This document shows, one piece after another, positions 13,536 to 64,000 of a DNA stretch of 64,000 nt (within the stretch, counting starts at the first letter, position 1; the number at the start of each line of letters is the position of its first letter). Position numbers and translations under genes: made by a program. The notes below the pieces were generated by a model. That model searched no databases, was not told the origin of the DNA, and saw nothing but the letters and a program-made list of their open reading frames with translations. Origin of the DNA: Escherichia coli (GTDB lineage: Bacteria > Pseudomonadota > Gammaproteobacteria > Enterobacterales > Enterobacteriaceae); NCBI RefSeq assembly GCF_044647545.1, contig NZ_CP172818.1; one strand, 5' to 3'.

Positions 13536-13683
13536 TTTTACCTCTGTAAATTGTTCTGTTGTTGTCTGTACCAGCGTACGAGATGGCGCGGATTATAATG
13601 AGCAACAGAGCCGTTGACTATTGATGAAGGTAACATTTTTTTAAAATAAACCCAGTTTAAGCAACAATCAGGGGCAAAACAGA

Positions 13684-28394: not shown

Positions 28395-28781
28395 TTATTT
28401 TGCTTCACGTTTGCTTTTATAGTCCGCAATGGCGGCTTTGATCGCGTCTTCTGCCAGAATAGAACAGTGAATTTTCACCGGCGGCAGTTCAAGTTCTTCA
28501 GCAATATCGGTGTTTTTGATCGCCTGCGCTTCGTCGAGAGACTTCCCTTTCACCCATTCGGTGACCAGGGAGCTGGAAGCGATAGCAGAACCGCAGCCGT
28601 AAGTTTTAAAACGCGCGTCTTCAATGATACCTTCATCGTTGACTTTAATCTGCAACTTCATCACGTCGCCACAGGCCGGTGCACCCACCATGCCGCTGCC
28701 GACGTTCTCGTCGTTGTTGTCAAAGGAACCCACGTTACGCGGATTCTCGTAATGGTCGATAACTTTTTCGCTGTAAGCCAT
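28395..28781 (-). CDS. iscU: Fe-S cluster scaffold protein IscU
   Basis: 128 aa, MAYSEKVIDHYENPRNVGSFDNNDENVGSGMVGAPACGDVMKLQIKV... Confidence 0.95.
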   Translation of the reverse strand: MAYSEKVIDHYENPRNVGSFDNNDENVGSGMVGAPACGDVMKLQIKVNDEGIIEDARFKTYGCGSAIASSSLVTEWVKGKSLDEAQAIKNTDIAEELELPPVKIHCSILAEDAIKAAIADYKSKREAK

Positions 28782-52410: not shown

Positions 52411-53664
52411 TTATGCGTAAACCGGATAACGTGCGCAGATGTCGAGAACTTTACCTTTGATGCGCTCGATAACAGCTTCATCATTGATGCTGTCCAGCAC
52501 GTCACACATCCAGCCAGCCAGTTCTTTCGCTTCGGCTTCTTTAAAGCCACGACGGGTAATCGCCGGAGTACCTACACGAATACCGGAGGTCACAAACGGG
52601 CTCTTCGGATCGTTCGGTACGCTGTTTTTGTTGACGGTGATGTTAGCACGGCCCAGAGCGGCGTCAGCTTCTTTACCGGTCAGGTTTTTATCAACCAGAT
52701 CAACCAGGAACAGGTGGTTATCAGTGCCGCCGGAAACCACTTTGTAGCCGCGTTCCAGGAACACTTCTACCATCGCTTTAGCGTTTTTAGCGACCTGCTG
52801 CTGGTAAGTTTTGAACTCAGGCTCCATCGCTTCTTTCAGAGCAACCGCTTTACCAGCGATTACGTGCATCAACGGGCCGCCCTGACCACCAGGGAAAACG
52901 GCAGAGTTCAGTTTTTTGTACAGCTCTTCGCTACCACCTTTCGCCAGGATCAGGCCGCCGCGCGGACCCGCCAGGGTTTTGTGAGTGGTGGTAGTAACAA
53001 CGTGAGCATGAGGAACCGGGTTCGGGTAGACGCCAGCAGCAACCAGGCCCGCAACGTGCGCCATATCAACGAACAGGTAAGCACCGATGCTGTCAGCGAT
53101 TTCACGCATTTTCGCCCAGTCCACCACGCCGGAATATGCAGAGAAGCCACCGATAATCATTTTCGGTTTGTGTTCTTTGGCTTGTTTTTCCAGATCGGCG
53201 TAGTCGATATGACCGGTAGCATCGATACCGTAAGGAACGATGTTGTACAGTTTACCGGAGAAGTTAACCGGAGAACCGTGAGTCAGGTGACCGCCATGCG
53301 CCAGGTTCATACCCAGAACGGTATCGCCTGGTTCCAGCAACGCAGTGTACACCGCAAAGTTAGCCTGGGAGCCGGAGTGCGGCTGGACGTTAGCGTAGTC
53401 AGCGCCGAACAGTTCTTTCGCACGATCGATCGCCAGTTGTTCAACGATATCAACATACTCGCAACCGCCGTAGTAGCGTTTGCCCGGATAACCTTCAGCA
53501 TATTTGTTGGTCAGCTGAGAACCCTGCGCCTGCATTACGCGAGGGCTGGTGTAGTTTTCGGAGGCGATCAGTTCGATGTGCTCTTCCTGACGTACTTTTT
53601 CCTGCTCCATAGCCTGCCACAGTTCGGCATCATAATCGGCAATGTTCATTTCACGCTTTAACAT
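52411..53664 (-). CDS. glyA: Serine hydroxymethyltransferase
   Basis: Track ORF 52411..53670 contains [38 protein letters not shown]... after a 2-codon extension; 417 aa. Confidence 0.95.
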
Positions 53665-53942
53665 CCGCATCTCCTGACTCAGCTAACAATAAAATTTTTG
53701 GCCTTTATAGGCGGTCCTGTTGGACAACGGCGAACAGTATAACCGAATCATTGTGCGATAACAGGTCTTGACAAAGGAATTTACGCAAACGATTACCTTC
53801 AGGCTGCGCAAGGCTTTGGAGAATAAAGAGCTTGCAACCGGAAACGGATTTCTTTTCAGGTTTGTGATGCAAATTTTTCACTTCATCACATTCTTTCTGA
53901 AAAACACCAAAGAACCATTTACATTGCAGGGCTATTTTTTAT

Positions 53943-53965
53943 AAGATGCATTTGAGATACATCAA
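53943..53965. promoter_or_regulatory. NsrR-type operator in the hmp promoter
   Basis: AAGATGCATTTGAGATACATCAA, an imperfect inverted repeat matching the NsrR consensus as I recall it, 27 nt upstream of the hmp ATG. Confidence 0.55.
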
Positions 53966-53991
53966 TTAAGATGCAAAAAAAGGAAGACCAT

Positions 53992-55182
53992 ATGCTTGAC
54001 GCTCAAACCATCGCTACAGTAAAAGCCACCATCCCTTTACTGGTGGAAACGGGGCCAAAGTTAACCGCCCATTTCTACGACCGTATGTTTACTCATAACC
54101 CAGAACTCAAAGAAATTTTTAACATGAGTAACCAGCGCAATGGCGATCAACGTGAAGCCCTGTTTAACGCTATTGCCGCCTACGCCAGTAATATTGAAAA
54201 CCTGCCTGCGCTGCTGCCAGCGGTAGAAAAAATCGCGCAGAAGCACACCAGTTTCCAGATCAAACCGGAACAGTACAACATTGTCGGTGAACACCTGTTG
54301 GCGACGCTGGACGAAATGTTCAGCCCGGGCCAGGAAGTGCTGGACGCGTGGGGTAAAGCCTATGGCGTACTGGCTAATGTATTTATCAATCGCGAGGCGG
54401 AAATCTATAACGAAAACGCCAGCAAAGCCGGTGGCTGGGAAGGTACTCGCGATTTCCGCATTGTGGCTAAAACACCGCGCAGCGCGCTTATCACCAGCTT
54501 CGAACTGGAGCCGGTCGACGGTGGCGCAGTGGCAGAATACCGTCCGGGGCAATATCTCGGCGTCTGGCTGAAGCCGGAAGGTTTCCCGCATCAGGAAATT
54601 CGTCAGTACTCTTTGACTCGCAAACCGGATGGCAAAGGCTATCGTATTGCGGTGAAACGCGAAGAGGGTGGGCAGGTATCCAACTGGCTGCACAATCACG
54701 CCAATGTTGGCGATGTCGTGAAACTGGTCGCTCCGGCAGGTGATTTCTTTATGGCTGTCGCAGATGACACACCAGTGACGTTAATCTCTGCCGGTGTCGG
54801 TCAAACGCCAATGCTGGCAATGCTCGACACGCTGGCAAAAGCTGGCCACACAGCACAAGTGAACTGGTTCCATGCGGCAGAAAATGGCGATGTTCACGCC
54901 TTTGCCGATGAAGTTAAGGAACTGGGGCAAGCACTGCCGCGCTTTACCGCGCACACCTGGTATCGTCAGCCAAGCGAAGCCGATCGCGCTAAAGGTCAGT
55001 TTGATAGCGAAGGTCTGATGGATTTGAGCAAACTGGAAGGTGCGTTCAGCGATCCGACAATGCAGTTCTATCTCTGCGGCCCGGTTGGCTTCATGCAGTT
55101 TGCCGCGAAACAGTTAGTGGATCTGGGCGTGAAACAGGAAAACATTCATTACGAATGCTTTGGTCCGCATAAGGTGCTGTGA
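53992..55182 (+). CDS. hmp: Flavohemoprotein (nitric oxide dioxygenase)
   Basis: Track ORF 53971..55182 contains [33 protein letters not shown]... after a 7-codon extension; 396 aa; globin, FAD and NAD domains. Confidence 0.93.
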
Positions 55183-55226: not shown

Positions 55227-55601
<375 letters not shown>

Positions 55602-55625: not shown

Positions 55626-56960
55626 TCATTCCTTGAAATCGTTTGCATCCAGCTCGTGTCGGGAAAGCAGTTTATAAAATTCTGTCCGGTTGCGCCCCGC
55701 CATTCTCGCCGCGTGGGTGACGTTGCCTTTGGTAATTTGCAGCAGCTTACGCAAATAGTTGAGTTCAAACTGATTACGTGCCTCAACAAAGGTTGGCAGC
55801 GCCGTATTTTCACCCTCCAGCGCCTGCTCTACTAATGCATCACTAATCACCGGAGATGAGGTCAGCGCCACGCACTGTTCAATCACGTTGACCAACTGGC
55901 GTACATTACCCGGCCAGCTAGCGGTCATCAGGCGTTTCATTGCATCGGTGGAGAACGCGCGGACAAACGGTTTATGTCGCTCTGCCGCCTGGCGCAACAG
56001 GTGATTTGCCAGTAGCGGAATGTCTTCTGTGCGCTCTGCCAGAGCCGGAATTTTCAGGCTGACAACGTTGAGGCGGTAATAGAGATCTTCACGGAATTCC
56101 CCGCGCGCCATCGCTTTTGGCAGGTCGCGGTGAGTGGCGGAAATAATCCGCACGTCGATATCAATATCGCGGTTACTGCCCAGCGGGCGCACTTTACGCT
56201 CCTGCAACACGCGCAGCAGTTTGACCTGCAACGGTGCAGGCATATCGCCAATCTCATCGAGAAATAGCGTACCGCCTTCCGCCGCCTGGAATAAACCTTC
56301 GCGATTGCTGACAGCGCCAGTAAACGCACCACGCGCATGACCAAACAGCTCCGACTCCAGCAATTGCTCGGGCAATGCGCCACAGTTAATAGCAATAAAT
56401 GGTTTGCTGTTGCGCGGGCTGGCGTTGTGGATAGCCTGGGCGAAAATCTCTTTCCCGGTGCCGCTCTGGCCGTTAATCAAAACGCTAACGTCTGATTGCG
56501 CCACCAGCCGCGCCTGTTCCAGCAAACGCAGCATCAGCGGGCTGCGGGTGACAATCGCCTCGCGCCAGCGTTCGTCGGTGGCTGGCGCGGATTGTTCCAG
56601 CGCATCGTCAATTGCCTGATATAGCGCGTCTTTATCGACAGGCTTGGTGAGAAAACTGAACACGCCCTGCTGTGTTGCAGCAACGGCATCGGGAATAGAA
56701 CCATGCGCGGTAAGAATAATTACTGGCATTCCCGGCTGCACTTTCTGGATTTCAGCAAACAGCTGCATACCGTCCATTTCATCCATCCGCAGGTCGCTGA
56801 TGACTAAATCTACTTTTTCGCGATTCAGTACCCGTAATCCTTCAGCGCCACTTTCCGCCGTGACCACGCTGTAGCCTTCGCTGGTCAGGCGCAGGCCAAG
56901 CAGTTTCAGCAATCCCGGATCGTCATCGACCAATAATAAATGCGCAGGTTTATGGCTCAT
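55626..56960 (-). CDS. glrR: Sigma54-dependent two-component response regulator GlrR (QseF)
   Basis: Track ORF 55626..57062 contains [25 protein letters not shown]... after a 34-codon extension; 444 aa; receiver, AAA+ (GESGTGKE-like, GAFTGA) and HTH domains. Confidence 0.9.
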
Positions 56961-63776: not shown

Positions 63777-63792
63777 ACGAAACCGTTTGCGT
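63777..63792. promoter_or_regulatory. PurR operator (pur box) in the purL promoter
   Basis: ACGAAACCGTTTGCGT, a near-perfect palindrome matching the pur-box consensus ACGCAAACGTTTTCNT on the opposite strand, about 80 nt upstream of the purL ATG. Confidence 0.55.
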
Positions 63793-63957: not shown

Positions 63958-64000
63958 TTGAAAAAATTAAAGATTAATTATCTGTTCATCGGCATTCTGG
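63958..64000 (+). CDS. mltF: Membrane-bound lytic murein transglycosylase F, first 14 codons only (runs off the window end)
   Basis: TTG AAA AAA TTA AAG ATT AAT TAT CTG TTC ATC GGC ATT CTG reads (M)KKLKINYLFIGIL, matching the MltF signal peptide as I recall it. TTG start and identity are tentative. Confidence 0.5.
   Translation, partial: MKKLKINYLFIGIL

Follow-up and report, generated by a model that had tools for sequence, protein, structure and literature searches.

NsrR and PurR operators in the divergent glyA-hmp control region of Escherichia coli and their conservation across Enterobacterales

NsrR is described as the nitric oxide-sensitive [Fe-S] repressor of hmp, and an NsrR ChIP-seq peak between glyA and hmp was seen in CFT073 (PMC5320621). 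An earlier NsrR ChIP-chip study of K-12 is known from its citation in the same paper. Rodionov 2005 predicted the motif gATGyAT-N5-ATrCATc at hmp and noted it as conserved, and in Salmonella an hmp promoter probe carrying the NsrR site, given as AAGATGCATTTGATATACATCAT, was shifted by NsrR in an EMSA (PMC10783083). On the other side of the spacer, glyA is listed among the targets of PurR, whose binding is enhanced by adenine-derived hypoxanthine. The glyA motif was found by FIMO with P<1e-4, and the ChIP-chip enrichment amounted to 2.08 with adenine compared to 1.13 without (PMC3159470). The site ACGCAAACGATTACCT is also found among the RegulonDB PurR sites in PMC2585596, and RegulonDB grades the glyA PurR site as "confirmed".

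With a probability of about 95%, the spacer between both genes carries two independent, already characterised repressor operators, one per divergent gene, namely that of NsrR for hmp and that of PurR for glyA. The control of hmp by NsrR and of glyA by PurR is real, functional and already known, and belongs to the textbook regulation of E. coli. The original prediction had considered both sites to be consistent with known regulation, and the exact sequences are indeed contained in the tables of PMC5320621 and PMC3159470. The identity to the published sites, the scores, the positions and the conservation were determined in this analysis, while the in vivo binding is taken from the literature. 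The discovery value is small and the main use lies in calibration, with two real operators correctly named from the sequence alone. Mildly new are the comparative refinements, i.e. the apparent sharing of DNA by NsrR and FNR in Escherichia, a candidate third half-site at a fixed position, and the location of the PurR box upstream of the glyA core promoter. Promoter engineering or NO-biosensor work on the hmp promoter could profit from them.

Spacer, promoters and motif scan

The window, i.e. the whole stretch of 64,000 nucleotides that was analysed, originates from an E. coli chromosome. The 901 bases around the spacer match many E. coli chromosomes with 100% identity and occur a single time in 5,425 of 5,426 complete genomes. 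RefSeq annotates glyA (serine hydroxymethyltransferase) and hmpA (NO-inducible flavohaemoprotein) on the identical DNA. Positions of MG1655 (NC_000913.3) correspond to the window by a constant offset of 2,631,843, which places the glyA ATG (2685507) at 53664 and the hmp ATG (2685835) at 53992; length and arrangement of the spacer are as in MG1655. The interval 53665-53991, predicted to be the glyA-hmp divergent control region, comprises exactly the ATG-to-ATG spacer. Start sites determined in MG1655 by SMRT-Cappable-seq (PMC6131387 supplement) were transferred by the same offset, and conserved blocks were taken from an alignment of spacers of similar length from 46 species. The genes and promoter elements are as follows:

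52411-53664, minus strand: glyA coding sequence (serine hydroxymethyltransferase), ATG at 53664; open reading frame and RefSeq annotation of identical DNA
53665-53991, between glyA (minus) and hmp (plus): divergent control region of 327 bp; open reading frames and RefSeq annotation
53992-55182, plus strand: hmp coding sequence (NO-inducible flavohaemoprotein), ATG at 53992; open reading frame and RefSeq annotation of identical DNA
53728, minus strand: glyA transcription start site; SMRT-Cappable-seq, b2551, 2685571 reverse
53736-53741, minus strand: glyA -10 hexamer TATACT, 8-13 nt before the mapped start; conserved block 53732-53748
53918-53923, plus strand: hmp -35 hexamer TTTACA; conserved block 53913-53925 of the 46-species alignment
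53940-53945, plus strand: hmp -10 hexamer TATAAG, 8-13 nt before the mapped start; conserved block 53936-53955
53953, plus strand: hmp transcription start site; SMRT-Cappable-seq, b2552, 2685796 forward

The resulting hmp leader comprises 39 nt. For glyA, only a weak -35 was recognised. A sigma-70 scan proposed TTGTCA-16-AATGAT as the glyA promoter; this combination does not fit the mapped start at 53728, and the -10 hexamer TATACT was preferred. An Rfam scan of 53400-54200 returned only noise (mir-67, E 0.57), and no known RNA element explains the conservation of the spacer.

For the comparison across species, loci were retrieved from one-genome-per-species contigs with one degenerate DNA pattern covering hmp codons 25-33, which resulted in 120 loci. 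Divergent glyA-hmp was found in 80 of the retrieved loci, all from Enterobacterales (81 with the window). The sampled genera include Escherichia, Salmonella, Citrobacter, Klebsiella, Enterobacter, Serratia, Yersinia, Pectobacterium and Dickeya as well as Erwinia, Pantoea, Hafnia, Edwardsiella, Proteus, Morganella, Photorhabdus, Xenorhabdus and Arsenophonus. The hmp -35 hexamer TTTACA was found in nearly all of the 81 hmp upstream sequences.

Two symmetrised matrices were scanned over both strands of the whole 64-kb window (approximately 128,000 positions). The NsrR matrix was built from the 27 published 11-1-11 sites (PMC5320621 Table 4) minus the site under test, and the PurR matrix from the 28 ChIP-chip motifs (PMC3159470 Table 1) minus the glyA, purL and guaB sites. 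With these leave-out matrices, which retain some dependence on the motif definition since the published site lists were themselves matrix-selected, the hmp NsrR site reached 18.1 bits (training range 12.4-32.4 bits) and the glyA PurR site 21.5 bits (training median 17.5), each being rank 1 in the window. In random 64-kb first-order Markov windows these scores are reached 0.04 and 0.005 times per window, respectively. A matrix scan had been proposed together with the original prediction as a check on both motifs, and its outcome agrees with the published scores: the identical hmp sequence passes the published cut-off, with a PatSer ln P of -18.22 compared to the precision-recall cut-off of -14.28 and a ChIP-seq peak (PMC5320621), and the glyA site showed the FIMO significance given above.

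The next-best matches of the NsrR matrix, at 13632-13654, 63964-63986 and 28636-28658, scored 11.7-12.8 bits and lie at or below the weakest training site.

The NsrR operator on hmp and the nested FNR-like box

Three elements were located at the hmp start:

53943-53965, plus strand: NsrR operator, an imperfect 11-1-11 inverted repeat AAGATGCATTT-G-AGATACATCAA; matrix score, published site and conservation
53952-53965, no strand assigned: FNR-like box TTGAG-ATAC-ATCAA (TTGAGATACATCAA), 9/10 to TTGAT-N4-ATCAA, lying entirely within the right-hand portion of the NsrR operator
53968-53978, plus strand: extra direct NsrR half-site AAGATGCAAAA, 7.4 bits, covering +16 to +26 relative to the hmp start

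The definition of the NsrR operator as an 11-1-11 element reportedly goes back to Partridge 2009 and Mehta 2015. The 23-mer AAGATGCATTTGAGATACATCAA is located at 53943-53965, corresponding to -10 to +13 relative to the hmp start at 53953, and the final three bases of the -10 hexamer TATAAG are the initial three of the NsrR box. It had been predicted to be an NsrR-type operator overlapping the hmp promoter, which is borne out by the experimental start site and by the published hmp site: the hmp row of the NsrR 11-1-11 table reads TTGATGTATCTCAAATGCATCTT, the reverse complement of the 23-mer in the window (PMC5320621). The additional description as a palindrome is appropriate for the NsrR motif match, but not for the symmetry, with 7 of the 11 arm positions being self-complementary. 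In the spacer, no inverted repeat was found by the repeat search, and the search for a perfect NsrR palindrome with up to three mismatches gave no match, because the 23-mer has four mismatches to the ytfE-type palindrome (hand count). The 23-mer is recognisable as a motif match and not as a hairpin-type palindrome.

The two halves of the operator differ strongly. The left half AAGATGCATTT showed 15.6 bits, while the right half showed 2.0 bits with a 7/11 match. Compared to the near-perfect ytfE operator AAGATGCATTTAAAATGCATCTT, the 11-1-11 layout is common to both and the left half is identical, whereas the right half AGATACATCAA differs from that of ytfE (AAATGCATCTT) at 4 of 11 positions, at bases belonging to the FNR-like box. 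The hmp site scores 18 bits, and the best of the sites from which the matrix was built reaches 32.4 bits. The hmp site of Salmonella, AAGATGCATTTGATATACATCAT, lies at the orthologous position, comprises an identical left half and likewise contains an FNR-like core, TTGAT-N4-ATCAT (PMC10783083); two substitutions in the right half distinguish it from the E. coli site, with a right half of 10.2 bits in Salmonella compared to 2.0 in E. coli. Compared to the hmp site of K-12 and CFT073, the 23-nt sequence, the distance to the hmp ATG and the flanking genes are identical. Only one SNP in the spacer, at 53806 and outside both operators, separates the window from K-12, so that the same locus in another strain is concerned.

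Among the 81 sites, the NsrR site of E. coli and E. albertii is the lowest-scoring one, with the right half at 2.0 bits compared to a median of 12.6. This low value can be explained by the right half doubling as the FNR-like box. In Escherichia, NsrR and FNR would thus share one stretch of DNA. The centre of the FNR-like box lies at approximately +6.5 from the start at 53953, within 1 nt of +5.5, the position reported for the FNR site at hmp in the literature.

In the sampled species, the Escherichia hmp box was the weakest with 17.2 bits compared to 20-31.5 bits. Near-perfect hmp palindromes such as AAGTTGCATTTAAAATGCAACTT were observed in many distant genera, among them Arsenophonus, Edwardsiella, Xenorhabdus and Pantoea.

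As for the mode of action, a dimer of the [Fe-S] repressor NsrR is expected to bind to the 11-1-11 element at 53943-53965. The box extends from the last bases of the -10 hexamer across the start site to +13 of the transcript, and RNA polymerase should therefore be blocked by bound NsrR, a steric mechanism that we infer here. Nitric oxide would damage the cluster and remove NsrR from the DNA, upon which the NO-detoxifying flavohaemoglobin would be produced.

Downstream of the operator, a partial second copy of AAGATGCA had been predicted. This copy is present, but it starts at 53968 and not at 53970. The repeat search showed that TAAGATGCA forms an exact direct repeat of 9 nt at 53942-53950 and 53967-53975, i.e. 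25 bp apart. In the literature, two motifs are given for the glyA/hmp ChIP-seq peak, AAGATGCATTT with its centre at 44 nt and AAGATGCAAAA with its centre at 19 nt from the ATG, the latter having been entered as a possible motif (PMC5320621 Table 2). Across the 81 species, a half-site of at least 6.8 bits was found at an offset of +25 in 15 and at no other offset between 23 and 44, the background rate being 0.0029 per position. In loci with the +25 half-site the right half of the operator is weaker, with a median of 9.8 compared to 13.6 bits (Mann-Whitney p = 2.5e-4, phylogeny not corrected for); these loci cluster in few clades. The data are suggestive of a third half-site at +25 that compensates for a weak right half. 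A more far-reaching proposal would be that in Escherichia the right half has been ceded to the FNR box, that the TAAGATGCA repeat serves as the compensating third half-site and that NsrR cannot repress fully unless a second dimer binds or another register is used. We consider this proposal rather unlikely.

The PurR operator on glyA

The operator on the glyA side is the following:

53783-53798, no strand assigned: PurR operator ACGCAAACGATTACCT, spanning -55 to -70 relative to the glyA start site; matrix, published site and conservation

The sequence ACGCAAACGATTAC, located at 53783-53796, had been predicted as a half-consensus of the PurR operator on the glyA side. While the assignment to PurR and to glyA holds true, the site is the full 16-mer ACGCAAACGATTACCT and not a half-site. 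It agrees with the perfect palindrome ACGCAAACGTTTGCGT in 13 of 16 positions and contains the central CG. The glyA row of the ChIP-chip table reads AGGTAATCGTTTGCGT, the reverse complement of 53783-53798 (PMC3159470).

Compared to other operators of the pur regulon, for example that of purL (ACGAAACCGTTTGCGT), the 16-bp LacI-family palindrome with the central CG, the strong score and the adenine-enhanced ChIP-chip binding are in common. The difference lies in the position: the purL box overlaps the purL -35, whereas the glyA box lies upstream of the core promoter. It overlaps neither the glyA -35 nor the -10 and is placed between the core promoter and two MetR-like boxes described below. Among 32 PurR-regulated promoters, 14 (44%) carry the motif between -35 and -10, while the operators of purB and purR are located downstream of their promoters, and an overlap with -35 or -10 is not strictly required (PMC3159470). 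The way in which glyA is repressed would nevertheless deviate from the most frequent one.

PurR together with hypoxanthine or guanine would bind to 53783-53798 and cause a modest drop in glyA transcription, which would tie the supply of one-carbon units and glycine to purine sufficiency. Since the box lies upstream of the weak -35, repression most likely proceeds via interference with upstream contacts, either of the alpha subunit of RNA polymerase or of an activator such as MetR, and not by covering the -35 and -10. Purine repression of glyA is modest, about two-fold, and an interference with upstream contacts or with MetR activation would fit this value.

In five E. coli spacers that were compared, the NsrR and PurR operators were invariant and SNPs occurred at 53800, 53803, 53806 and 53808. 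These SNPs crowd 2-10 nt from the pur box, towards hmp; at 53806 the window carries G and K-12 carries A. The 51-bp stretch 53765-53815 is identical to the window in only 611 of 5,422 matching genomes.

Apart from glyA, the published PurR sites of purL, glnB and guaB were recovered at ranks 2, 3 and 6 and represent internal positive controls of the scan. The window therewith contains four documented PurR operators within 64 kb, those of guaB, glyA, glnB and purL. The purL operator ACGAAACCGTTTGCGT at 63777-63792 (PMC3159470 Table 1) is the second best in the window with 20.5 bits; relative to the purL start mapped to 63746 it covers approximately -31 to -46 and therefore overlaps the -35. At 55633-55648, TTGAAATCGTTTGCAT (13.7 bits) is identical to a RegulonDB-derived PurR site (PMC2585596). 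It lies within the final codons of glrR, and its position approximately 35-50 nt upstream of the glnB start at 55598 makes it the probable glnB site; glnB was not detected by ChIP-chip in Cho 2011. The published guaBA motif GCGTAACCGATTGCAT was found at 2794-2809 with 12.5 bits.

Conservation, alternative readings and further conserved blocks

An NsrR-type 23-mer was found in 80/80 of the other glyA-linked loci with 17-31.5 bits. Its distance to the hmp ATG is 38-66 nt in 78 species and 101 nt in the two remaining ones, both Yersinia, and in nearly all loci the 23-mer directly follows the TTTACA-spacer-TAT promoter. The pur box was likewise present in 80/80 species with 10.3-24.1 bits, reaching at least 14.9 bits in 78 of them; its distance to the glyA ATG amounts to approximately 95-137 nt in 75 species and to 151-308 nt in five with longer spacers. 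Where hmp is located apart from glyA, as in Vibrionaceae and others, an NsrR box of at least 18 bits was found in 27 of 32 loci, 35-68 nt before the ATG, while a pur box upstream of hmp was found in none of these 32 loci. The NsrR box is kept and the pur box is absent at hmp unlinked to glyA, and therefore each box goes with one gene, the NsrR box with hmp and the pur box with glyA.

Chance matches in an A+T-rich spacer, with no regulatory role for one or both motifs, could be suspected from the imperfect NsrR palindrome (7/11 in the arms and no inverted repeat found) and from the number of matches to the pur palindrome with three mismatches, of which 0.64 are expected per window by chance. 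However, both sites are rank 1 for their leave-out matrices at random expectations of 0.04 and 0.005 per 64 kb, their conservation is position-specific in 80/80 species from several Enterobacterales families, and the in vivo binding is published (PMC5320621, PMC3159470), so that this explanation can practically be dismissed. A different doubt concerns the identity of the binding protein at hmp, since the 23-mer could be an FNR operator with an incidental likeness to NsrR sites, its real role being anaerobic FNR repression. The nested box TTGAGATACATCAA matches the FNR consensus at 9/10, and Myers 2013 reported that an FNR site at hmp is predicted by matrix and cited earlier evidence for FNR binding at hmp, yet no FNR ChIP-seq peak was found there (PMC3688515), in contrast to the NsrR ChIP-seq peak (PMC5320621). 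Furthermore, conservation within the 23-mer is highest in the left half AAGATGCATTT, most of which is not part of the FNR box. With up to two mismatches, an FNR-like box is present in only 12 of 81 species, while the NsrR box is universal; with at most one mismatch it is limited to Escherichia, Salmonella and some Citrobacter, and Rodionov 2005 described the FNR site as conserved only in E. coli and Salmonella. A mere FNR operator is very improbable on these grounds. Most likely, both functions coexist at the 23-mer with NsrR being dominant. The sharing of the DNA with NsrR may be the explanation for the missing FNR ChIP-seq peak at the matrix-predicted hmp site, a link that we infer. Judged by its letters, the 23-mer also appears to fit an FNR box, and the letters alone do not tell which of the proteins is bound there in a particular condition.

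The assignment of the PurR box to glyA can be questioned in a similar manner, since in a shared control region it might act on hmp also, or on hmp instead of glyA. The box is located in the common spacer approximately 155-170 bp upstream of the hmp start and does not overlap the glyA core promoter. Against an action on hmp, no box occurs upstream of hmp wherever this gene is apart from glyA, and the distance to the glyA ATG is kept at approximately 95-137 nt in 75/80 species while the length of the spacer on the hmp side is variable. In addition, glyA is the gene to which the ChIP-chip study assigned the site (PMC3159470), and purine control of hmp is reported in none of the publications consulted. 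Control of hmp by the PurR box is therefore regarded as improbable, and the reading of two operators with one target gene each is retained.

Between the two operators, two tentative boxes are located in conserved blocks:

53846-53858, no strand assigned: tentative MetR-like box GGATTTCTTTTCA, two mismatches to TGAA-N5-TTCA; conserved block 53844-53862
53868-53880, no strand assigned: tentative MetR-like box TGCAAATTTTTCA, one mismatch to TGAA-N5-TTCA; conserved blocks 53862-53881

The binding of MetR to the glyA-hmp spacer is known from the titles of cited papers. MetR sites commonly come as pairs of TGAA-N5-TTCA boxes; the two boxes in the spacer are 22 bp apart, and TGCAAATTTTTCA was the sole match of the consensus search in the spacer; in the window, the pattern is not enriched over chance. 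Altogether, the conserved blocks of the 46 species comprise the glyA leader with the ribosome-binding site, the glyA -10, TTGTCA, the pur box, 53808-53818, the two MetR-like boxes, the hmp -35, and the hmp -10 with the left NsrR half. On the glyA strand, the conserved TTGTCA at 53769-53774 occupies -41 to -46 relative to the glyA start and is flanked by the weak -35 and the pur box; the conserved GCAAGGCTTTG at 53808-53818 occupies -80 to -90. These two blocks may belong to a secondary promoter or to an upstream element of the promoter, or may be bound by another factor.

Some species deviate from the common spacer length. In Yersinia (Y. similis, Y. pestis, Y. artesiana and Y. thracica), spacers of 540-723 bp or a long hmp leader were observed, and in the enlarged spacers the pur box lies approximately 307 nt from the glyA ATG. 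The enlargement of spacer or leader suggests insertions in the control region.

Variation was also observed in the hmp leader of E. coli. Among 5,220 matching genomes, 1,550 show one or two changes relative to the window in the 56 bp before the hmp ATG. In E. coli AVS0465, one extra A was found in the A-run 53972-53979, between the extra half-site and the hmp ribosome-binding site. The blood isolate E. coli MS14384 (NZ_LR130562.1) carries a tandem duplication of 29 bp in the hmp leader, aligned to 53968-53991, which repeats a stretch beginning with TTTGAGATACATCAATTAAGATGCA and comprising the FNR-like box or NsrR right half together with the extra AAGATGCA half-site; a partial coverage such as in this isolate was seen in at most 5 of the 5,220 matching genomes.
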